This document shows, in pieces, positions 174 through 54,807 of a stretch of 55,879 nucleotides of DNA. The DNA is taken from the IMG/VR virus record IMGVR_UViG_3300018079_000013, positions 1 to 55,879 of that record. One strand, written 5' to 3'. The DNA is from a virus (Duplodnaviria; Caudoviricetes). A program made the position numbers and the translations under genes. The notes beneath the pieces were generated by a model. That model did not search any database. It saw only the letters and a program-made list of their open reading frames with translations, and was not told where the DNA came from. Position 1 is the first letter of the stretch. The number at the start of each line of letters is the position of its first letter.

Positions 174-304
174 TACCTAAATGGAGCCTAGAGTCCGGCA
201 TGGTTCCGCTTGCCCATACGCGCGTTCGCTCTAGATAGGGTATCGGTTGACTTGAAGCGATTTCACACCGCCTACCGGGTTGCTCCCTAGGCTCCATTCA
301 AGTA
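174..304 (-). ncRNA. Structured RNA cassette (closing-stem family)
   Basis: 18-bp inverted repeat 174-191/287-304, fully paired on the minus strand with two G-U wobbles; intergenic. Confidence 0.6.
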
Positions 305-364
305 TGGGGTAGCGTTGCCGACTGCCTGCGGCGTGCGCCATGATCGTCACGTGGAATTTTACGC

Positions 365-447
365 TACCTCAATGAGCTACACAGGTGCGCCTTATCCGAA
401 GAGTTTGCGCTTATGATTCTTACAGACCTGTGTAGCTCATTCAAGTA
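365..447 (-). ncRNA. Structured RNA cassette (closing-stem family)
   Basis: 22-bp stem 365-386/426-447: UACUUGAAUGAGCUACACAGGU/ACCUGUGUAGCUCAUUGAGGUA with G-G mismatch. Confidence 0.65.
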
Positions 448-448
448 T

Positions 449-590
449 GGAATCAGGGACACAGCCACTTACCTTTCAACCCTGATCCCGAATGCCGTTT
501 CACCTTATGCCGCTTGCCAAAGCGGATCACCTGGATTTACACGCATCCGGTTACCAGGAGTTAGGCTCATAGGTAGCTGTGTCGCATTCC
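449..590 (-). ncRNA. Structured RNA cassette (related stem)
   Basis: 11-bp stem 458-468/573-583 (GACACAGCUAC/GUGGCUGUGUC on minus) enclosing several hairpins. Confidence 0.45.
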
Positions 591-746
591 TATAAATTGT
601 TGACCGCTTTGTTTTGGGCAGGCGGTCAGTCTGCCAGGAGGTTGCTATTTCGCTCCTGACTCGGCCTCCCGAATCGTCAGGTTAACGCTATCCGATTTCC
701 CGTCGGTAGTCGGGCGAAGCGCCACAGATACGCGGAGCAGTGGACG

Positions 747-3077: not shown

Positions 3078-3278
3078 TTACCTCCCTGTTGTGCAGAGTC
3101 TTAGTGCATTCTCTAGCTCTGCAAACTTATCTGGCTGAGGGTTCTGATAGCTCATTTCAGCTACGCAGTTAGCAAGCCCATTTACGTCCGTCGCTGGACG
3201 CTCAGGCCGTTGCGACACGACGTAAAGCCCGGCGGCCGTTAGCACCGCTGTTACGTAAATGATTAGGGCGGTTTTCAC
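3078..3278 (-). CDS. Small membrane-anchored protein
   Basis: GTGA overlap start; N-terminal hydrophobic helix. Confidence 0.55.
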   Translation of the reverse strand: MKTALIIYVTAVLTAAGLYVVSQRPERPATDVNGLANCVAEMSYQNPQPDKFAELENALRLCTTGR

Positions 3279-3460
3279 GGTATTCCTAGTTCTCTCTTTG
3301 CTACGACTAGCGCGACCTCGAACGTCTTTCGGCACGTTACCATTGTTCGTCCGTCACGCTGAGTTTCGATTAGCCACACGTACTCGGGATCGGGACGAAG
3401 GCTCGCGTCCTCGATGTATGAGATTTGCAGCGTCTTGCTGCAACCCTCCGGCATTTCCAT
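3275..3460 (-). CDS. Hypothetical protein
   Basis: GGGAGGTAAA RBS. Confidence 0.6.
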   Translation of the reverse strand: MEMPEGCSKTLQISYIEDASLRPDPEYVWLIETQRDGRTMVTCRKTFEVALVVAKRELGIP

Positions 3461-3995: not shown

Positions 3996-4591
3996 GCTGT
4001 TACCTCCCGTTTGAAGTCGCTTTCACTGTAACCCCATTCGCGGATCATTCTCGCTTGCTCGGTCGGGTCGTCACACTTGCACGAACCGTCCGCGCGGTAA
4101 TGCGACACGTCGAATATCACGTGCGGGCAGGCTTGGATCGTACTCTGCTTTACGTTGTACGATTGCAAGCCTGCTCGGTTCGACAAGTCCACGAGCCAGC
4201 TACCCGTGTGGCACTTGCAAACCGAGTCAGCCTGCATCGGGTACATCCTGCTCCCGACGTTTAGCCTCGCGGTTGCCTCGAACGTATCCGCGAAGTTCTT
4301 CGCACCCTTGTAGTCCGCCCACGTTGTCTTGATCCGGGCATCGGGGCGCAACTTGAACACACGCGACATAAAGTCACGGTGTCCGTGCCAACACACTGCG
4401 AACACGCGGCGTTCCGGGCGGAAGCCACTTGAACTAGTGCGTTGGTATTTGTAGTCGCCGTCGATCCTCATGCCACAAGGCCGAAGCTGGAATCGCAACG
4501 CGCGCCCATCTTTCCGCACGTCTTTGAGTTCCACGCCTACCTCGTTGGCAACATCCTGTAGTTCGTCGGCACTAACGTGCCAAACCTTCAT
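3992..4591 (-). CDS. Hypothetical Cys/His-containing protein
   Basis: AAGGAGGTAAC RBS; CWHGH and two CKC motifs. Confidence 0.75.
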   Translation of the reverse strand: MKVWHVSADELQDVANEVGVELKDVRKDGRALRFQLRPCGMRIDGDYKYQRTSSSGFRPERRVFAVCWHGHRDFMSRVFKLRPDARIKTTWADYKGAKNFADTFEATARLNVGSRMYPMQADSVCKCHTGSWLVDLSNRAGLQSYNVKQSTIQACPHVIFDVSHYRADGSCKCDDPTEQARMIREWGYSESDFKREVTA

Positions 4592-4797: not shown

Positions 4798-4812
4798 TTT
4801 TGTTACCTCCCT

Positions 4813-4948
4813 GTAGATTCCGTGAGCTAGTAGTGATTGACCTCGTGCAACCTCCCACGTCTGTGTCCGGCGTTCGACTCGGTGTGTTCACGAGTCCCGG
4901 TGTCCAGGCCGATTGTGTAGGTGTGACTACTAAGCTCACGCAACCTAC
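4813..4948 (-). ncRNA. Structured RNA cassette (closing-stem family)
   Basis: Stem 4813-4834/4926-4948: GUAGGUUG-CGU-GAGC/GCUC-ACG-GAAUCUAC with G-G mismatch and G-U on minus. Confidence 0.65.
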
Positions 4949-5060
4949 CAATGGCTGCGCTTATTAGTTTCGGTGCCACGAGTGAACACTCTTAGCTCTG
5001 GCGCTCTGCATTGCGCGGTGTTCACTAACAGAAATCGTCGTGGCACACTCCTGTATAGCA

Positions 5061-5661: not shown

Positions 5662-5680
5662 AGTGTAGCAGGGCTGTCAA
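5662..5680 (-). promoter_or_regulatory. Short-spacer promoter motif TTGACA-N4-TGC-TACACT
   Basis: Same arrangement as 2279-2297; ~30 nt upstream of a start codon. Confidence 0.65.
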
Positions 5681-5731
5681 GTAGCACCCTACATCTAGCC
5701 TATTTCTAGGTAGGATAGGGTGCTACTTCAC
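5676..5731 (-). ncRNA. Short cassette/hairpin of the closing-stem family
   Basis: GUG-AAG-UAGCACCCUA/UAGGGUGCUA-CUU-GAC with G-G mismatch. Confidence 0.5.
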
Positions 5732-5738
5732 GTTCCTT

Positions 5739-5883
5739 TCTGTCACATGAGCCTAGCCTTATTACGGATTTATCCAGCCAGTGTGATTGATTAGCTGGTA
5801 CCGCGCCCGATATTCTATCCGCGCTCCGTCTTTCCTAGATTACGGGATGGCGTCGGGCATTCGTGCTAGGCTCATGTCACAAA
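5739..5883 (-). ncRNA. Structured RNA cassette (closing-stem family)
   Basis: Stem 5739-5757/5865-5883: UUUGUG-ACAU-GAGCCUAGC/GCUAGGCUC-AUGU-GACAGA with G-G mismatch. Confidence 0.6.
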
Positions 5884-6185
5884 GTCGGTTGACAAAGTGA
5901 CAATCCACCGCTTTTCAGTGAAATTGTAATACTTAGTCGTTTCTGTCACGAGAAGGTGTAAATTCCCACCTCTATTACGAGGGAGTAGTAGTTACTTACT
6001 AGTAAAGAGGATAGATTCCTAGGAAACTACCCTAGATTACCAGCTAGTTACTTCACCTTCCCTCAAGACAAAGGTGAGGATTTATACAACGAAGGCAACA
6101 CGCTACGCAATCGCGCAATCGTGAATCCGCGTTGTCACAAACTCGGGGTTACGTTAGCTAAGCTAACGCATCCCTGAATCTGTCA

Positions 6186-6317
6186 CTACGGAAGAGACGC
6201 GCCGTAGCGCGCACGAAGTTGCATGAGTCGCCATGCTGTAGCGTAGTAACCCGCGAAACCGTGCAGGTACGCGCTGAGCACGCTGGCACACTCGTCGCAA
6301 TACTGTTGGTAGGTCAT
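6186..6317 (-). CDS. Small hypothetical protein
   Basis: ATGA-coupled start MTYQQYCDEC. Confidence 0.5.
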   Translation of the reverse strand: MTYQQYCDECASVLSAYLHGFAGYYATAWRLMQLRARYGASLP

Positions 6318-13403: not shown

Positions 13404-14243
13404 ATGACGCTCGCGCTTCCCGTTCCTGCGTGGCTTGCGTTCGAGACGAACCTTACGGCTACGCCTGTCGCAGGGGCAGGAAACCTCATCACGGCCGCTG
13501 GTACTGCTCACGTCAAGGGTGCGTGGACGTCGTGTATCGATCCCGTGGACTATGACTCCTACGGTTTATGGATAGGACTCAACGATAGCGCGGTTGCGAA
13601 TACGCGCACGGATCAGTTGCTCGACATCGCTATCGGGCCGTCCGGAGGCGGCTCGGAACAGGTCATCGTCTCTAACCTGATCTGTGGTTGGAGTGCCACC
13701 GGAGCGGCGAGCGCAACCTACATGGGACGCAGATTCTTCCTGCCGATCTTCATTCCAAAGGGTGTTCGCGTCTCGGCACGCATCCAGGCGCTCATCGTCT
13801 CGGATACGATGCATTTACAGATCGGACTGCTCGGAGGGGAGTCGAATCTCGGCTGGCCTATCTGTATGGGAATGGACGATTATGGCGTCGATACGGCCAC
13901 ATCGGGCGGAACCTCGCATACCCCCGGAAACTCCGGTGCGTACTCGGCCTACACCAACTTGGGCTCGACTCTCTCCCGGAACTATAAGGGTGTCCTCATG
14001 CTCCCGCAGGGAACGATGAGTGACACGGTGATGGGGAGCCTCGCCTACTACTGGCAGGCAGCTATCTCTTCCGGCACGATTGCCTCGTGGCAATACGAGA
14101 CGACTACTGGAGAGAATGTGACCGGCCCGTGGCCGGGGCAGCCCTTCATGGCCGAGTTGCCATCGGGTACGCAAATGCAAGTGCGAGCGACCTGCTCGGG
14201 CACGGCCGAGGCACAAGATGTCGGGATGTATTGTCTCTACTGA
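13404..14243 (+). CDS. Putative virion/receptor-binding protein with internal duplication
   Basis: Two similar halves (...IPKGVRVSARIQ / LPSGTQMQVRAT). Confidence 0.6.
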   Translation: MTLALPVPAWLAFETNLTATPVAGAGNLITAAGTAHVKGAWTSCIDPVDYDSYGLWIGLNDSAVANTRTDQLLDIAIGPSGGGSEQVIVSNLICGWSATGAASATYMGRRFFLPIFIPKGVRVSARIQALIVSDTMHLQIGLLGGESNLGWPICMGMDDYGVDTATSGGTSHTPGNSGAYSAYTNLGSTLSRNYKGVLMLPQGTMSDTVMGSLAYYWQAAISSGTIASWQYETTTGENVTGPWPGQPFMAELPSGTQMQVRATCSGTAEAQDVGMYCLY

Positions 14244-36682: not shown

Positions 36683-36871
36683 TCATTGCGCCTTGGCAGC
36701 TTGAACGGCAGTTTTCAATCCTTCCAAAAGTACCTTGGCCGCAACGGGTGCGTTACCATTGTGGATGATTAACCATTCAATTCCCTCTTCTGCTCTTTCC
36801 ATACTGAGCGTCTTTTTGTAAATTCTAGGCCCATATTCATTAGCATCCACGGTTACGATAAGATTTCTCAT
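36683..36871 (-). CDS. Hypothetical protein
   Basis: ATGA overlap with the polymerase stop. Confidence 0.55.
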   Translation of the reverse strand: MRNLIVTVDANEYGPRIYKKTLSMERAEEGIEWLIIHNGNAPVAAKVLLEGLKTAVQAAKAQ

Positions 36872-39321
36872 GTGCAATCCCCCCATGTTGGGCCGCTAGT
36901 AATATCAGCGATGAATGGAAGAGTCCAGCCAAGTTCGTCCCTGGCGCAGGATTCCATAATCTGTTTGCAAATCGTACTGTACTCATCCACGTAAGAATCC
37001 TCTACCTCAGCAACGATGGAGTCATGTACGAGATTGACAATAGCGCATCGGGATCGATCTGTTTGAGCTTCGACTCCAATAGCAGAACAGAGCGTGAGAT
37101 CGCTCGCACATGATTGCGGATAAAAATTAATTCCTTCTCGGAAAGCGGCCTGCACGTTCTCGCGTGTAAGCAAGTGGAATCGGCGCTTTCTACCGAAAGG
37201 ACTGATAAGAACTCCGCGCTTACGTATTTCCTGCTCGATTCCAAGTTCCCACTCTCCTACTCCTATGAAGGTTGTCCATACCCAATCGATGTAGGCTTGT
37301 GCACGTACTGCGTCGATACCATGCTTCTGCTGAAATGTATCAGCACCCTGACGATAGAAAACTCCGAAGTTCACATTCTTACAGGTTGACCGTTGTTCCT
37401 TGGTGAAGTCTTCTCCAAAGAATCGTCGAGCGGTTTCGTCGTGAAGGTCGAGGCCATCAGTGTAAATTTTCGAAAGTAACGAATCCCCAGAAAAAGCAGC
37501 GATACATCGTAACTCTGCCTGTGAAAAGTCAGCTTGTACAATGGTAAATCCTGGGGGCGCATGGAACAGCTTCCGAATATGAGGTAGATCCTCTTTCTCC
37601 CTCGTGATATTTTGTAGGTTCGGCTTCGAACTACTAAGGCGTCCGGAGTTGGTTCCGTGTAGATTGAGTTGAGTGTAAATCCGAGAATCTTCATCTAGCT
37701 CCGCTCGTTCGATGAGTGAAAGTATGTAAGTAGATGCCTGTTTCTGAACTTTCTGGAAACGATGGTATCGCTTAATGAATGACTTGATATGTTCCTTGCG
37801 TTCGGCATAGTCAGGTGCTTCAACTTGGCTGACCATGTTACCCTTGCGCTGTGTTACCATCGCGCCTTTGAAAGTAAATCGATCCTGCAAAATTTCCTCG
37901 CGAGCAGCATCATCCACAGAGCGCTTTGGGTTCCGCATCGTTGGAGTTGCCGGACGATTCTGCATCGCGTGCTTGATACCCCAATCATCATAGAACACTT
38001 TTGAAAGTTGCGTAGGCGATCGAGGATTCAGTAACGCATTATCGATCTGGCGTTGCATTTCTAACGTAAGCGTGTCCATTTCAGGTTTAACGACGAACTC
38101 ATAGATGTCGGCAGCACCAGGAACATCGTAGACCATACCATGAAGTTCTACACCGATGAGAAACTCATTGGCTCGAAGTAAAAGTTGGTATGTGTCCAGT
38201 ACATTGTCAGCCTTAGCACGTTCCAACTGAAGTTGGAGCAGTTGATATGTGCCCCCAACATCCATACCGGCGTATCTGTAGAATTCATCATAGTCTGTTA
38301 CGATTCCTGTCTTTTTAGTTTTCTCGATTGCAGAGCTAGAGTATTTCGGCCAGCCGAATTCATCCATGAGCAAGTAATCCAAACCGTGCACCCCGATACG
38401 TTCGTCAGTACCACTGCGCTCGTCAAGTGTGTAGCTGAGTAACATTGTGTCATGGTCTACTCGGGCTTGGATTCCATAGCTGTGGCGCAAAATCTTAGAG
38501 TCGAATTTCCCTCCGTGCCATACAAAGCTATGTCGTGGGGATTCGAGATAGGGCTTGATGTAATGGCTAAGAAAATCTCCATCTTCCCAAAGTCTCGACC
38601 GCTCTCCGAATACATACGAAGTAATTCCGTCAATACTGAATTGCACGCTGATAAGAGTGGCTTTATGGGTGATTCCTCCCCTTGTTTCAATATCCCCTGC
38701 AACTCTACCTTCGTTGGCGCTAAGAAAGTCAATTGCGTCTCTTGCTTCTTTCCCATCTTCAATTACCTCAACTATCGGCAGGGTAGGTGGTGGGTCAGGA
38801 TGGAAGGCTCGTCGGAAGTCACGTTTGAGATTCGGGAACGTTGAATCATCTCGGAGTACGAGCGCAGGGTTATTTGCAGCAACAACGGTTCGTCCACTCT
38901 GCTCGATACGGTAGCCTCGATAATTGTCAATGCTTCCGCGTCCAATAAGCTCATTAACTGCTTCACGGCCGCAGGCGATAACGAGATCGATCCCGGATAG
39001 CTCTTTACGTAGGCGCGGAGCGCACGCTTTAATCGCTTCCGGTGGAACCACCGCATCGTCCGGTGCACATAGAACAGTGTTAGTAACGAGAACTTCTCCA
39101 CGCGATACTCCATTCATCTTGAGTAGATGATCTAGCACTTTACCTGACGGGCCTGAAAACGGTTTTCCTGCAATTGCCTCGTGGTAGCCCGGTGAACGCG
39201 AAACGATAGCCGCCTTTGGCTTCTGTGGGCTTTGCGTAGGTGCACATGGACGCGAGTACAGTGGGCACTCTTCGCACAGAGCGTCAGGATGTTTTCTTAC
39301 AACAGATGTAACAGCAGCCAT
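36868..39321 (-). CDS. polA: Family A DNA polymerase with N-terminal family-4 UDG-like domain and 3'-5' exonuclease
   Basis: CEECPL, PFSGPSG; exo DIET, KFD, YAGMD; pol GRLSSSKPNLQNI, ADFSQAELR, KNVNFG, VHDS. Confidence 0.95.
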   Translation of the reverse strand: MAAVTSVVRKHPDALCEECPLYSRPCAPTQSPQKPKAAIVSRSPGYHEAIAGKPFSGPSGKVLDHLLKMNGVSRGEVLVTNTVLCAPDDAVVPPEAIKACAPRLRKELSGIDLVIACGREAVNELIGRGSIDNYRGYRIEQSGRTVVAANNPALVLRDDSTFPNLKRDFRRAFHPDPPPTLPIVEVIEDGKEARDAIDFLSANEGRVAGDIETRGGITHKATLISVQFSIDGITSYVFGERSRLWEDGDFLSHYIKPYLESPRHSFVWHGGKFDSKILRHSYGIQARVDHDTMLLSYTLDERSGTDERIGVHGLDYLLMDEFGWPKYSSSAIEKTKKTGIVTDYDEFYRYAGMDVGGTYQLLQLQLERAKADNVLDTYQLLLRANEFLIGVELHGMVYDVPGAADIYEFVVKPEMDTLTLEMQRQIDNALLNPRSPTQLSKVFYDDWGIKHAMQNRPATPTMRNPKRSVDDAAREEILQDRFTFKGAMVTQRKGNMVSQVEAPDYAERKEHIKSFIKRYHRFQKVQKQASTYILSLIERAELDEDSRIYTQLNLHGTNSGRLSSSKPNLQNITREKEDLPHIRKLFHAPPGFTIVQADFSQAELRCIAAFSGDSLLSKIYTDGLDLHDETARRFFGEDFTKEQRSTCKNVNFGVFYRQGADTFQQKHGIDAVRAQAYIDWVWTTFIGVGEWELGIEQEIRKRGVLISPFGRKRRFHLLTRENVQAAFREGINFYPQSCASDLTLCSAIGVEAQTDRSRCAIVNLVHDSIVAEVEDSYVDEYSTICKQIMESCARDELGWTLPFIADITSGPTWGDCT

Positions 39322-51576: not shown

Positions 51577-52542
51577 TTATCGTCGGAAGTTGAAGACTCG
51601 TCGTTCGGTAATAATGAGCGGTTTGTCTTCCGGGCCTTTGATGTGTTCGTAGATGTATACCCAACTATGGGTTTTCGTTTTCGAGTAGTATTGCCTGCGC
51701 CAGTGTCCACTGACAACCCAACGTCGTGACCATTCAATCTTCTGTGGTTCCTCGTCATCCTTCTTAACTGACTTGCGACGAAGAGTGATCAGCGTGATAA
51801 AACGTTGAGGTTCGTTAGGAAACTCACGAGCAAATCGCTTTCGACTAGCACGATCAGGGTCTAACCTGATGGGAGCACCGATTTTCTGTTGCGCGAGCAG
51901 TTGCATTGCAACAAACAACTTCACTATTCCAACCACTAGCTCTGACCCTTGTACTGTGTAATCTGGCATGGGCTCGCCTATCCTGCACGGATACAAGTGC
52001 GCCAACACAAGTGGCGGCACAGGGACTCCATCGCGCGCACAGTTGGCAATGTACTGCTCATTGAACTCATCATTGAAATCGGTCGGATCGGTAAAGTAGT
52101 AGATGATAATAGTTTCCAACGGATTGCTTTCGTCCGCATCGTTACGAACGCGATCAAGTACCCACGCCATTGCGTGCATAGTTACTTTGCGTCCATTTCG
52201 ATCTATGCCATCTATCGGTTCCTCGAATAGAACAAATCCTCTTGGTGAGAGCATTGATTCTTTTTCGAATACGACATTCTGCGGAAGATCATGCGCGGCC
52301 TGTAGTAGTAGGTGCATCATGTCCGTCGTAATGAACACGGTGTCAGCTTGCCACAATGTTGAGCACAGATTTGAAACGAAATTGAGTAGGTCGAAGTCTT
52401 TGGTCACTCGGTTAAGATCGGCACCAATCAACCCATTAAAGAAGTTGTATGAATAACTGACCCCGTAATCCTGCTTTAGCCATTTTAACGTATCCATCTG
52501 CACGTCAAGCGCACGGTGCCAGCCTGTGTGTACGCTATTCAT
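51577..52542 (-). CDS. Hypothetical phage protein
   Basis: C-terminal WVVSGHWRRQ...HIKGP motif. Confidence 0.75.
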   Translation of the reverse strand: MNSVHTGWHRALDVQMDTLKWLKQDYGVSYSYNFFNGLIGADLNRVTKDFDLLNFVSNLCSTLWQADTVFITTDMMHLLLQAAHDLPQNVVFEKESMLSPRGFVLFEEPIDGIDRNGRKVTMHAMAWVLDRVRNDADESNPLETIIIYYFTDPTDFNDEFNEQYIANCARDGVPVPPLVLAHLYPCRIGEPMPDYTVQGSELVVGIVKLFVAMQLLAQQKIGAPIRLDPDRASRKRFAREFPNEPQRFITLITLRRKSVKKDDEEPQKIEWSRRWVVSGHWRRQYYSKTKTHSWVYIYEHIKGPEDKPLIITERRVFNFRR

Positions 52543-52559
52543 CGTATGTCAATATTACT

Positions 52560-53009
52560 TCACTCACGTTCCACCGTCCCGTCTGCGTATATGATCACGC
52601 GCGGGATACCTTTCCTTTCCGCTTTGCGTACAGTTGACCATGTGCCGCTTCGATAAAATGGCCTTGGGTTGAGCGGCCACTGCTGCGGACATGCTATCAG
52701 CATAGCACATGTGTCAACTATTGCCTGATTGCGAACCGTGTACGATGCAGGTAGCTCGACTCGATCAGTCGCGTCACGTGGGCAGTCTGCACGATACTTT
52801 GAACTCGCGGGCGGATGCACATGTACATTGTAACCTATTGCTTTGGCACTGGTATGTGCTTGTTCGTCGGCTCCGATGCAGTCACCATGATGAAACCAAA
52901 TGGCACCACTATTGCGTAGCTCCGCGAGCACAGTTCGCAGGGCATGCCGTTGCTTGCTAGACAAGCCCAATCGCGTGCCTGTGAAGCCAACGTGTACGAC
53001 TTCACTCAT
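52560..53009 (-). CDS. SLOG/DprA-like nucleotide-binding protein
   Basis: GFTGTR, HHGDCIGAD, RNQAIV, SGTWSTVR.A. Confidence 0.75.
   Translation of the reverse strand: MSEVVHVGFTGTRLGLSSKQRHALRTVLAELRNSGAIWFHHGDCIGADEQAHTSAKAIGYNVHVHPPASSKYRADCPRDATDRVELPASYTVRNQAIVDTCAMLIACPQQWPLNPRPFYRSGTWSTVRKAERKGIPRVIIYADGTVERE
52699..52717 (-). promoter_or_regulatory. Short-spacer promoter motif TTGACA-N4-TGC-TATGCT
   Basis: Third copy; intragenic, ~160 nt upstream of 52542. Confidence 0.5.
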
Positions 53010-53030
53010 GTTTGTTACCTCCCTTGGTTT

Positions 53031-53680
53031 ATTGAGCTACGTAGGGCGATTCTAACCTTAGCCCTTCGCATATTTTTGCGACTCGTCGTGGCATAGCCGC
53101 TAAACTATACCGCGTGCGATGCTACCCGCAATTTCTCTACCTAACTCCACTGATACAGTCGGCTCTATATGCACTTTACCATTCTTCAACAGCTCCATGC
53201 AGAAACTAGGCTCGACTGCATCTATGGGCAGTCCTACGTAGCTCACGGAGCGGGCGCAATGAATTGCTGATTCCCGATTTACCGTCGAGCGGGATAAAGC
53301 CCAAACGGACTCACGGTTTGATCAGAGAGTCAACGAACTATCCTGGATCGTTGAGCTTCTTCCTCCATTGCGTTTATCCCGCTCCGTCAACTACGTAGCT
53401 CAATGAGTGAGGCTCCCGCATGGCTTGCCACCTAACAAGTTGCGGTCGGGGAGCAGGTGTTTTGTGTTCGATCCCCACGTCCTCACTCATTCAACTACGT
53501 AGAGGTTTATTGCCCGTCGCGTAGTTGCATCTACCACGGGCCGTGTGCACCGAATGATACAGACATGCACACCTAGCACGGAAGACCTACCAGTGCGATG
53601 CAACGAACGGTAGGTAGCATCGTGAGAGTGACTACGCTGCAACGGTCACTCTCGTTATGAGCGTGGCTTGCAGGCAACAC
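53031..53680 (-). ncRNA. Tandem array of structured RNA cassettes joined by TGAGCTACGTAGTTGA-type linkers
   Basis: Stems 53033-45/53233-45, 53234-54/53378-98, 53391-412/53481-502; further hairpins to 53680. Confidence 0.65.
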
Positions 53681-53682
53681 AC

Positions 53683-53799
53683 TCATACCTTTATGAGTAG
53701 ATTTTCAGGTTCTACCCAAACACCATAATTCGCCATTATGATCAGGACAAACATGGCATCGATGTATTCCTGCTCGGTTTCAAACCAAGCAAGGAACAC
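53683..53799 (-). CDS. Small hypothetical protein
   Basis: 38-aa ORF abutting the upstream gene. Confidence 0.4.
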   Translation of the reverse strand: MFLAWFETEQEYIDAMFVLIIMANYGVWVEPENLLIKV

Positions 53800-53800
53800 T

Positions 53801-53986
53801 TCAGGCATGTGATAATTCGTGTGCCAGTTCATCGTGATCACCATGAAGGATACGACCTAGGTTTTCGGCTACTCCCCAATACGTTTTAACGGAGATCGGG
53901 TCGAAACCCAAACCCTGATCGTATTGTGTCTCTAAGAGACTAGTTTCGCCTATCGCATCCTTCATGCTGATCACGAAGATCAGCAT
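53801..53986 (-). CDS. Hypothetical protein
   Basis: ORF in operon. Confidence 0.5.
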   Translation of the reverse strand: MLIFVISMKDAIGETSLLETQYDQGLGFDPISVKTYWGVAENLGRILHGDHDELAHELSHA

Positions 53987-53993
53987 TGTTGCC

Positions 53994-54374
53994 TTACGCG
54001 GCGTTCGGGTTTTCAAGGTAAACCGTGCCGACCTTCGATTCCTTGTCGGTGCGGCTCGAAACCTTGACGTGCTGCACGCCTTCGGGCGCGTTCTTACCGT
54101 CGCGTGCGTTCTTGAGCGCCGTCGAGATCGAAGACGCTTGCTTACCTGCGAACTGACCCGTCTGAGTCGAGATTCGCGCGAAGCGCTGACCCGACTGCGC
54201 GAACGCGGTCAGAACCTTACCGTAGATGCCCTTCTCGGCTGAAGCGGCTGCGCCAGCCTCGGCCCACTCCTCTTCGGACATCGACTCGAAAATGTTCTCA
54301 ACTTCACTTGCACTCATGTCGCTGTTCCCTTCCTCTTGTGTTTGAACTTCAGTGTCTCTTCGTTGTCTCGCCAT
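53994..54374 (-). CDS. Hypothetical protein
   Basis: GAGGAAGG RBS; downstream of a canonical promoter. Confidence 0.7.
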   Translation of the reverse strand: MARQRRDTEVQTQEEGNSDMSASEVENIFESMSEEEWAEAGAAASAEKGIYGKVLTAFAQSGQRFARISTQTGQFAGKQASSISTALKNARDGKNAPEGVQHVKVSSRTDKESKVGTVYLENPNAA

Positions 54375-54807
54375 TCGCCTTCCTCTTTTCGAGAACCGTC
54401 AATCTCTCTTCGAAATTGACCAACGTACCTGCTAGATCGATTCCTTTTAACCTCCCTTCCAGTAGTTCAACTCGTGTCTCTAGTGTACTGGACGCTCCCT
54501 CATTTGTCAAGGGGCGTCTGTACGCGGCACGAAACTCGTCCAGTACAGGCGAACGGTACAGGGCCATCACGCTAGGTTGCCCTGCCCTACCTCTGTACAG
54601 TAGTTGAATGCAGCCCATTTCCTCAAGGACTGCATACAGTTGTGTGTAGTACGCTTGTGACACATGTAAAGAGCGAAACGTTTCAACGCGTGACCCGGTG
54701 AAAACCTTACGGCTTTTATCCGCTTTATCTATTGTAGCAGTCTTGTCAAGCGCCTCGTACAACGCGAGACAGTGCTCGAACATGCGTGGCACAGGAAGTT
54801 CTGTCAC
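54349..54807 (-). CDS. Putative winged-helix DNA-binding protein
   Basis: Helix-turn-helix-like segment followed by LEEMGCIQLLYRG wing; C-terminal coiled coil. Confidence 0.45.
   Translation of the reverse strand: MTELPVPRMFEHCLALYEALDKTATIDKADKSRKVFTGSRVETFRSLHVSQAYYTQLYAVLEEMGCIQLLYRGRAGQPSVMALYRSPVLDEFRAAYRRPLTNEGASSTLETRVELLEGRLKGIDLAGTLVNFEERLTVLEKRKANGETTKRH
54482..54510 (-). promoter_or_regulatory. Canonical sigma70-type promoter
   Basis: CCCCTTGACAAA, 17-bp spacer, TACACT; same flank as the 47942 promoter. Confidence 0.65.
54731..54749 (-). promoter_or_regulatory. Short-spacer promoter motif TTGACA-N4-TGC-TACAAT
   Basis: Fourth copy, inside the putative wHTH gene. Confidence 0.5.

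Follow-up and report, generated by a model that had tools for sequence, protein, structure and literature searches.

The array and its setting

The DNA analyzed here, called the window throughout, is a viral contig of 55,879 bases (IMG/VR record IMGVR_UViG_3300018079_000013; Duplodnaviria, Caudoviricetes) that is rated 94% complete and labelled G000 in our comparisons. Its minus strand encodes a family-A DNA polymerase, a primase, an SNF2 helicase, and a PD-(D/E)XK nuclease; together with an AAA_24 protein, the nuclease makes up a recombination module. The subject of this report is an array of three hairpin-closed units on the same strand, at positions 53031-53502, and above all the helix that closes them. 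The units are joined by palindromic CUACGUAG linkers and lie in a stretch without credible open reading frame (ORF), 53010-53682, which is flanked by a 53-amino-acid (aa) and a 149-aa minus-strand gene (see Table 1 for coordinates). A close relative, L157, has the same 53-aa ORF, the same three-unit array, and, behind it, the same 149-aa gene. No promoter-like and no terminator-like site was found on the minus strand in a consensus scan of 52900-54500, and a position between co-oriented genes with neither kind of site would fit a location inside a polycistronic RNA. TTGA was also considered as part of a promoter and rejected: the spacing to -10-like hexamers was checked by eye, and the consensus scan found none.

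The initial annotation had described the minus-strand layout as units closed by long helices, and it reads so in the sequence: a repeat finder returned inverted repeats of 22 nt around 68 nt for unit 1 (arms 53481-53502/53391-53412, 91% complementary) and of 21 nt around 123 nt for unit 2 (arms 53378-53398/53234-53254, 90% complementary), whereas the 13-nt arms of unit 3 (53233-53245/53033-53045) are 100% complementary. CTACGTAG is present in six copies in the window against 0.60 expected, a number reached by 0 of 100 shuffles, and four of the six copies fall within 53037-53502; the linker itself is a near-palindrome that occurs four times in 470 bp, with linker-to-linker spacings of 104, 157, and 197 nt. 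Since CUACGUAG is common to the 5' arm of unit 2 and the 3' arm of unit 1, which overlap at 53391-53398, and since the 5' arm of unit 3 is the 3' arm of unit 2, both units using 53234-53245, neighboring outer helices are mutually exclusive, as had been proposed.

The array is shorter than first thought. It was initially drawn from 53031 to 53680, but the units end at 53502, and 53503-53680 is a different, partly conserved upstream block: 53503-53610 is 82% identical to L157 (shuffles, 57%), and the stem of a hairpin at 53513-53540 covaries in L140, another relative. Contigs from two DNA runs (X1 and X2) are identical to the window across the array and therefore hold no population variation to test there; no RNA run was found for 52300-54400.

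A closing helix conserved in ten phage lineages

The same closing helix was found in 18 instances in 10 phage lineages, in agreement with the early suggestion of a common helix that covaries in homologous phages. These instances were collected by several routes. Among viral contigs, a 16-mer scan gave one true relative, L007 (record G001), and a 14-mer scan gave, among the 117 matches listed, which were mostly due to chance, only L081 (record G002) as both new and real; L143-L147 came in through the G002 Ro60 protein. In metagenome contigs, an 18-mer scan added L152/L157 and L156, and a helix census added L006. Gapped two-arm scans gave 10 new loci, with L162 and L168 real and the other eight not cassettes but three sequence types (L159; L160/161/163/167; and L164/165/166). 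The 18-mer scan of bacterial genomes yielded one lone match, without a hairpin, and a blastn search with 52500-54400 against a cultured phage collection yielded none.

Pairs were counted by a script outward from the mismatch, because MAFFT placed the 3' arm wrongly in units whose outer stem had changed. At offsets -5 to +10, 17-18 of the 18 units are paired, with each variable position showing 2-5 pair types, and over offsets -8 to +10, 311 of 324 cells pair, compared with 104-144 when the 3' partner is slid by 1-3; as the scan selects helices, the percentage paired is inflated, and it is the slid controls and the variety of pair types that are informative. Three positions are invariant in 18/18 units: U-A at -1, G·G at 0, and A-U at +1. 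At offset -2, 15 of the 18 units have U·G, and the remaining three have U-A or C-G. Compensatory changes are seen in the outer stem (ACGUAG/CUACGU, ACAAA/UUUGU, CAUAA/UUAUG, AUAC/GUA) and likewise in the inner stem beyond AAUGAG/CUCAUU. Both strands read 5'-UUGAR-3' over the mismatch, and the core is nearly two-fold symmetric with the G·G on the dyad; the symmetry is exact (UUGAA/UUGAA) in L006 and in L168 c2. The helix totals 18-24 bp (median 22; n=18), with the mismatch 4-10 pairs from its base, and the units are roughly 45-170 nt long.

Control loci give a measure of how specific this signature is. Long helices of this phage group favor G·G as their mismatch: among those that reach 18 bp and have exactly one mismatch, it was G·G in 16/30 from 8 related records and in 6/30 from 36 control loci, one of these six being L006, a relative; the related records also had four C·C cases among their 30, most of which are antisense images of G·G helices. 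Under a stricter definition, namely a UGA/UGA helix with at least 9 inner and at least 4 outer pairs, four were found in the 55.9-kb window, all on the gene strand, versus nine (L006 included) in 1.10 Mb of loci taken as unrelated.

The initial annotation had recognized no described family here, and database searches agree with it. At gathering score, the whole window has 0 Rfam matches; at E<=10, 52900-53800 has 0 as well (YrlA included); and at E<=1, one chance-level small nucleolar RNA match appears in the whole window, at 13727-13799. ARAGORN found no tRNA and no transfer-messenger RNA (tmRNA) in the window. No description of the motif was found in the literature searched, which comprised papers without their supplementary tables (the phage Y RNA tables of PMC4201824 may bear on it). 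By this comparative evidence, the closing helix constitutes a conserved RNA motif that is new and has no Rfam counterpart.

Strand of the helix and a covariance model

The helices of units 1 and 2 each contain one U·G and one G·G on the minus strand, as the initial annotation stated, and these become C·A and C·C on the plus strand. Similarly, offsets -5 to +10 of the 18 units, apart from -2, hold 6 G·U cells and 0 A·C cells. On these grounds, the chemistry of the pairs decides for the minus, gene-sense strand as the one on which the helix would form as RNA.

The covariance model R1, built from six units of similar length, tells the same strands apart. Searched over 655,207 bases, it gave 23 matches at E<=1, comprising the 6 training units, 7 further sense units (47.3 to 29 bits), 7 antisense echoes, and 3 weak matches outside the relatives (E 0.073-0.51); the sense and antisense scores were 83.8/28.2, 67.5/32, 62.4/27.2, and 45.2/24 bits. 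Unit 1, a training sequence, scores 90 bits.

The frame is kept and the contents are replaced

Comparison with L157 separates the helix from what it encloses. The interior of unit 1 (68 versus 107 nt) has an identity of 0.47 with its L157 counterpart, where shuffles give 0.45+-0.02, and that of unit 2 (123 versus 96 nt) has 0.54, where shuffles give 0.52+-0.02; the arms of unit 2 are kept in L157 and its interior is not. At 4-fold degenerate sites, the two phages are identical in 39/60 and 10/15 positions, that is, in 49/75 (65%). Shuffle-level interiors in units 1 and 2, set against 65% identity at the 4-fold sites, mean that selection, as far as this pair of phages tells, holds the helix frame and not its contents, which either get replaced or diverge far more quickly than synonymous sites do. 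The interiors were initially said to be mutually unrelated, which an all-against-all comparison of 22 interiors upholds: no two interiors within an array are alike, and the sole related pair is unit 3 of G000 and unit 3 of L157. Direct observation covers the helices, the way they are conserved and covary, their strand bias, and the fact that interiors turn over, and a frozen frame around replaced contents offers a testable case of modular evolution at the RNA level.

A candidate recognition site for a dimeric RNA-binding factor

A helix that is conserved, symmetric, and two turns long around free contents suggests that some factor reads the helix itself, and the symmetric core suggests that this factor is a homodimer. 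The reading that we favor, tentatively, is that the closing helix may be a recognition or processing site, for docking or for cutting, of a dimeric factor specific for double-stranded RNA. The leading candidate for that factor would be host RNase III, although this identification is doubtful. RNase III is homodimeric, with a valley that accommodates about 22 bp, according to the accessible part of PMC6212723, and a helix of about two turns is what the 18 instances have.

From the sequence, we infer transcription of the array, a protein partner, cleavage, and a route of recombination, which could combine as follows. The array would be a non-coding stretch in a minus-strand early operon, and its RNA would fold into three hairpin-framed modules. 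Cutting of the RNase III type would divide the early polycistronic RNA into segments with hairpin-capped ends and liberate the enclosed pieces. In units 1 and 2, the interiors would be free to vary and would be replaced between related phages, probably by recombination at the 15- to 17-nt conserved arms, and the perfect helix of unit 3 would compete with unit 2 for the same 12 nt.

RNase III hairpins lie between the early genes of T7-type phages, and processing stems flank rRNAs. By analogy, the cassettes could be likened to the T7-type hairpins in being intercistronic, repeated along an early transcript, about two helical turns long, and suited to leave hairpin-capped ends. Unlike those hairpins, they enclose 3-123 nt of unrelated sequence, have an invariant G·G in a symmetric UUGAR core, and are chained via a palindrome.

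Several points speak against a processing site of this kind. The dyad of the core lies on a base pair, and this would misfit the geometry of RNase III, in which a 2-nt overhang puts the dyad between pairs. Two or three sites in a row exceed what simple processing needs, and the chaining is left unexplained. Neither RNase III nor a double-strand-RNA-binding domain is encoded by G000, G001, or G002. Folding energy picks no strand (z -6.36 for minus and -7.06 for plus, with 20 shuffles each). Nor can the non-coding segment 53611-53682 be aligned with L157, so fast turnover belongs to the locus and is not limited to the cassette interiors. The definition of the family rests in part on the scan rule, TG..GA flanked by pairs, and such a rule favors paired cells from the outset; R1 misses 5 of the 18 instances with default filters, and with filters off its score for unit 2 is 8.7 bits (E 0.21).

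Strong covariation in ten lineages comes with a sharp signature, in which an invariant G·G centers a symmetric five-pair core within a helix of about two turns, and such a signature predicts a specific, probably dimeric partner. If that partner were RNase III, the cassettes would constitute a sequence-defined family of RNase III sites outside the model phages.

Islands of RNA genes and a possible relation to Y RNAs

The relatives form a phage group with replication proteins that are 30-60% identical and with a syntenic early segment, where a 126-aa protein that begins MARxR (the MARxR protein) is followed by a small ORF, non-coding RNA, and later a double zinc-ribbon protein and the SNF2 helicase. 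Throughout the group, the MARxR protein is conserved and keeps a position just upstream. What fills the non-coding slot differs between relatives, and the number of units differs between lineages. L140, the closest relative here at the protein level, has a slot of ~190 nt without cassette, and the 149-aa gene is absent at this place; the motif is also absent from L129-L133. No gene was found among the relatives that co-occurs specifically with the cassettes. The double zinc-ribbon and MARxR proteins were considered as cassette partners and set aside, as both belong to the core genes and occur in relatives that lack cassettes too.

Where cassettes occur, other RNA genes often stand beside them. 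G001 has a tmRNA (79 bits in Rfam; also called by ARAGORN) at L007:7825-8118, which equals L135:15383-15676, and its first cassette follows after 3-10 nt. G002 has ~8 Y-RNA-like units, then two cassettes, and then a TROVE/Ro60 gene (TROVE Pfam, 3.3e-16); two of the Y-like units match Rfam YrlA with E 8e-8 and 1.4e-4, below the gathering score. This Y-like array lies at L134:760-1600 and has the motif GAUGCGNAG..GGGUUACUUC..AGUUCUC, the TROVE/Ro60 gene lies at L081:863-2413, and with ~8 units the array is much larger than the four units beside the Ro gene of Streptomyces phage BRock. L143-L147 carry a cassette inside a Y-like array, L146 has a cassette hairpin just upstream of such an array, and the YrlA model also matches canonical units of L143 and L146, below the gathering score. 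The Y-RNA island of L146, upstream of the Ro60 gene, also contains a manA RNA above the gathering score (3180-3356; 57.4 versus 55.2 bits). Among cultured phages, it is those of actinobacteria that carry the nearest relatives of the Ro60 protein and the helicase. The motif marks a hypervariable RNA-gene island in little-known freshwater and soil phages and offers a handle on the purpose of such islands.

Some further elements of these islands were noted in passing. L162 (~540-700, minus strand) and L168 (~4360-4490) share another conserved structured RNA between cassettes, with the closing stem GUAGUGUGUG/..GCACACUA and the conserved blocks GGCAAACUCGUAGCUA and CGUAGGCCGCGCACACUA, for which Rfam has no match at E<=0.1. 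L129 has a tRNA-like element at ~3150-3228, with a T-arm-like GGUUCGAUUCC and a 7-bp acceptor-like stem, that is not called by ARAGORN, and a similar element is present at L006:8670-8735 (minus strand). Clear TTGACA-N17/18-TAGNNT promoters stand ahead of the RNA islands of L129, L131, L140, L143, L146, and G002; a promoter of this type was not found ahead of the array in the window.

The company of Y-like units raises the question of whether the cassettes are themselves a non-canonical class of Y RNA, with a helix that would bind host or phage Ro60 (Rsr) and an interior that would tether or gate it, comparable to the YrlB type. We consider this unlikely, despite real resemblances. Cassettes stand beside Y-RNA arrays and a TROVE gene in 3/10 lineages (G002, L143-L147, and L146). 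Like Y RNAs (YrlA, RF02553; YrlB-type), they have a long stem formed from both ends, and different units lie side by side. As far as the available part of PMC4201824 goes, Y RNAs are 80-130 nt long with such a stem, which holds a conserved distorted protein-binding site; several are encoded together and come from one precursor; and a second, hairpin-like Y RNA is present in each species studied. The 5' strand of the cassettes, GUUGAAUG, is one letter off the Rsr motif GNCGAAN0-1G that the same part of that paper places near the 5' end. If the partner were Ro60, the definition of Y RNA would be widened.

The resemblance does not extend to the features that define the class, three of four testable ones being absent from the window. 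The long terminal stem around a variable part is present. A Ro60/TROVE gene within ~2 kb is not, being found solely next to the cassettes of G002, the L143 group, and L146; domain search and tblastn detected no TROVE gene in G000, despite its estimated completeness, or in G001, and L156 and L168 lack it across the syntenic interval examined, so that cassettes persist without Ro60. There is no tRNA-like domain and no covariance model match (0 in Rfam, nothing from ARAGORN), YrlA giving no match at E<=10 in 52900-53800. GUUGAAUG or a close variant forms the 5' strand in 18/18 instances and CGAA in 0/18, whereas canonical phage Y units carry GAUGCGNAG..GGUUACUUC, a motif whose exact form is absent from the window. 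Conversely, in Streptomyces phages BRock and GiJojo the Ro gene is accompanied by four canonical Y-like units and by no cassette. Finally, Ro is a ring protein that contacts mainly one strand, as described in the portion of PMC4201824 at hand, which would leave the two-fold symmetry of the cassette core unexplained. The cassettes further differ from Y RNAs in that their core is symmetric around the G·G, where a Y RNA has a bulged helix read on one strand, and in that their interiors are not conserved.

Do the interiors function as small RNAs?

The initial annotation held that the common helix releases or stabilizes a repertoire of distinct functional small RNAs. Put in general form, each interior would be a separate small RNA acting as decoy, aptamer, antisense, or anti-defence RNA, the helix would merely stabilize or release it, and the turnover of interiors would reflect an arms race. 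The complete difference of interiors between units and between phages within a kept frame is what such a repertoire would look like, and the cassettes do lie in islands of bona fide RNA genes (tmRNA, Y-like units, manA RNA). The interiors themselves make it quite improbable. They were described as structured, and this is weakly borne out: folding z is -0.85, -1.82, and -2.65 for units 1, 2, and 3 and -2.76 for G001 c2, so that some fold moderately better than shuffles, but z is above -1 in 8/14 interiors tested. Interior length ranges from 3 to 123 nt over the 18 instances, and two instances are plain hairpins with loops of 3 and 10 nt. No interior is conserved except that of unit 3 between G000 and L157, and none has a match among cultured phages. 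Searched against the phage's own genome, the interiors match nothing beyond 10- to 11-mers (E at least 0.36), and the antisense idea was rejected for this reason. With interiors at shuffle level against L157, folding little better than shuffles, and giving one related pair among 22, the proposed repertoire is not sustained.

A broader scheme would join several of these elements: exchangeable-cargo RNA cassettes, whose helix would be a docking and release site for a dimeric host or phage protein, whose interiors would be a fast-changing decoy or antisense repertoire against host defences or rival phages, and whose arms would be joints in DNA through which cassettes pass from phage to phage, the whole being an integron-like small-RNA pool in the RNA-gene islands that also contain Y RNAs with Ro60, tmRNA, and manA RNA. 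We give this scheme little credit. Tandem conserved repeats that alternate with variable segments are also known from TIGR and CRISPR arrays in phages, where a single transcript is processed; in the part of PMC12045711 available, TIGR units are 36 nt long, have 9-nt spacers, and need a Nop-domain protein. Unlike in those arrays, the variable parts of the cassettes are irregular (3-187 nt) and self-closed by their own stems, and no Nop domain was found in G000, G001, or G002.

Do the arms act in DNA?

The replacement of interiors between phages with 65% identity at synonymous sites could also mean that the arms act mainly in DNA, either as exchange joints, like the promoter/stem-loop cassettes of T4-type phages, or as sites for a dimeric DNA-binding protein on the 16- to 22-bp near-palindromic linker. 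This linker recurs four times in 470 bp, unit number varies by lineage, L140 lacks both the cassettes and the 149-aa gene, and the phage encodes a recombination module of its own (AAA_24 and the PD-(D/E)XK nuclease). There is also precedent: in T4-type phages, short repeated regulatory cassettes are documented to recombine with one another in the accessible text of PMC2839356, which describes the PeSL as promoter and terminator stem-loop repeats that bracket protein genes. Like the PeSL, the cassettes consist of short conserved stem-loop repeats that bracket variable segments in a plastic early region, and their contents are swapped, the interiors of units 1 and 2 being replaced in L157. Unlike the PeSL, cassette contents are non-coding, the arms of each unit pair across its own interior, and neither a strong sigma-70-like promoter nor a terminator was found (0 sites in 52900-54500).

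What makes a role confined to DNA most improbable is the pairing itself. Complementarity extends 10-16 bp past the linker into unit-specific, covarying sequence, which no DNA site or joint needs; wobble pairs occur on one strand alone; and two fixed asymmetries are kept in 10 lineages. No match to Phage_integrase, Y1_Tnp, or RVT_1 was obtained in G000, G001, or G002, which leaves the cassettes without the Y1 HUH transposase of IS200/IS605-type or REP hairpins and without the adjacent reverse transcriptase of a retron non-coding RNA. Integron attC sites are imperfect hairpins of ~20 bp with fixed unpaired bases and a variable terminal part, arranged as tandem units. The cassettes may be compared with them, by analogy, in that structure is conserved rather than sequence and units are in tandem; they differ in having no integrase, no ORF cargo, and no paired AAC/GTT core, and in that the wobbles fit the transcribed strand. 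A role in DNA may nevertheless hold in addition to one in RNA, and recombination at the arms would be the simplest account of the swapped contents.

The terminal unit and a possible switch

Unit 3 differs from the other two. Its interior is 80% identical to that of L157 (shuffles, 60%), and a consensus fold of the two has 57 predicted pairs, 3 of them compensatory. Because the interior is conserved in L157, unit 3 is, on this comparison, a conserved 5' leader of the next gene; its 3' arm stops ~10 nt before the ribosome-binding site of the 149-aa gene. Terminal units of this kind, in which the 5' arm is the 3' arm of the last cassette, close the arrays of G000, L157, L156, G001, G002, L162, and L168, with a matching extra base pair in both arms in L156.

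This layout suggests a switch in cis, in which the 3' arm of unit 2 would pair either with its own 5' arm or with the 3' arm of unit 3, and these competing pairings would govern how the downstream gene is translated, stabilized, or read through, maybe with the 126-aa MARxR protein. The arrangement of a cassette followed by a perfect terminal helix over a shared arm in 7 lineages is in its favor, as is the distance from the last arm to the ribosome-binding site, 10-16 nt in 4/7 arrays read; a sister G·G helix covers the start codon of the 53-aa ORF (53832-53976; Table 1), and the MARxR protein keeps its place just upstream. As an explanation of the cassettes in general, we hold out small hope for it. 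What lies downstream varies between the 149-aa gene, a 321-aa homologue, the SNF2 helicase, and a further RNA; where a cassette is solitary, no partner competes with it; and the MARxR protein is also present in L129, L131, and L140, relatives without cassettes, and has no RNA-binding annotation in any search made. For the terminal unit, a cis switch on competing pairings is possible. A profile search with the MARxR protein gave 2 loci, and an Atlas search gave unnamed clusters at 0.84-0.85, which are a lead and no more.

Further helices and sites in the window

Six other sites in the window had been listed as bearing the same signature with covariation within one genome. One of them, 365-447, is a true member of the family: as 364-448, it scores 31.6 bits with R1, with E 5.7e-5 in the 655,207-base search and 5.6e-7 in the search with filters off. 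The six as a whole are not one family. Three of the others (matched as 171-307, 4812-4949, and 1913-2058) rank right after the true member with filters off, at E 0.1-0.35, and 5676-5731 has the core but a single outer pair. The main features are collected in Table 1.

Table 1. Units of the array, other helices, and adjacent genes in the window
Feature	Positions	Strand	Description
Unit 1	53391..53502	-	22-bp closing helix: 10 outer pairs, G·G, 11 inner pairs; 68-nt interior, 53413-53480
Unit 2	53234..53398	-	21-bp closing helix (10 + G·G + 10); 123-nt interior, 53255-53377
Unit 3 (terminal)	53033..53245	-	Perfect 13-bp helix without G·G; 187-nt interior
Upstream non-coding block	53503..53613	-	Partly conserved; outside the cassette array
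149-aa gene	52560..53009	-	Directly downstream of the array; PHROG 289, E 5e-8
53-aa ORF	53683..53844	-	Directly upstream of the array; syntenic marker of the locus in relatives
25-bp G·G helix	53832..53976	-	3' arm covers the start codon of the 53-aa ORF; R1 11.6 bits, E 0.036
Solitary cassette, full family member	364..448	-	5 outer + G·G + 16 inner = 22 bp; outer stem compensatorily changed
Near-member	174..304	-	UUGA/UUAG, G·U replaces G·G; R1 11.8 bits, E 0.1
22-bp long-range helix	1916..2056	-	G·G in another sequence context (5 + 16); R1 9.8 bits, E 0.35
Long-range helix	4813..4948	-	G·G, 7 + 8, then bulge; ~10 nt before a ribosome-binding site; R1 10.7 bits, E 0.2
Long-range helix	5739..5883	-	UGA/UGA G·G core flanked by 5 outer and 13 inner pairs; a gene start lies downstream

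The helix at 53832-53976 is kept in L140 with a covarying inner stem, and a similar helix is present in L156; it is a likely translational control element. Near the same start codon, the X1 contig has one extra A behind 53845, just 5' of where the 53-aa ORF starts, and 69 bases at 53846-53916 are missing from one X2 contig of low depth.

The intergenic stretch 5741-6186 (446 nt) holds 6 of the 31 copies of GTGACA in the window. The total is at chance level (31 versus 32.6 expected), and two of the six clustered copies form the base of the 5739-5883 helix. On the minus strand, 448-745 is a stretch of ~300 nt without a listed ORF of at least 90 aa, located between the last gene of the operon and the sites at 174-447; several hairpins are evident there by eye, and it may be another RNA island.

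Two features of the genome at large were also noted. The ribosome-binding site GGGAGGUAAC is unusually uniform, lying 5-8 nt 5' of the start codons of many genes on both strands of the window. An 817-aa ORF at 36868-39321 (minus strand) combines a uracil-DNA-glycosylase-superfamily domain with a 3'-5' exonuclease and a family-A DNA polymerase.

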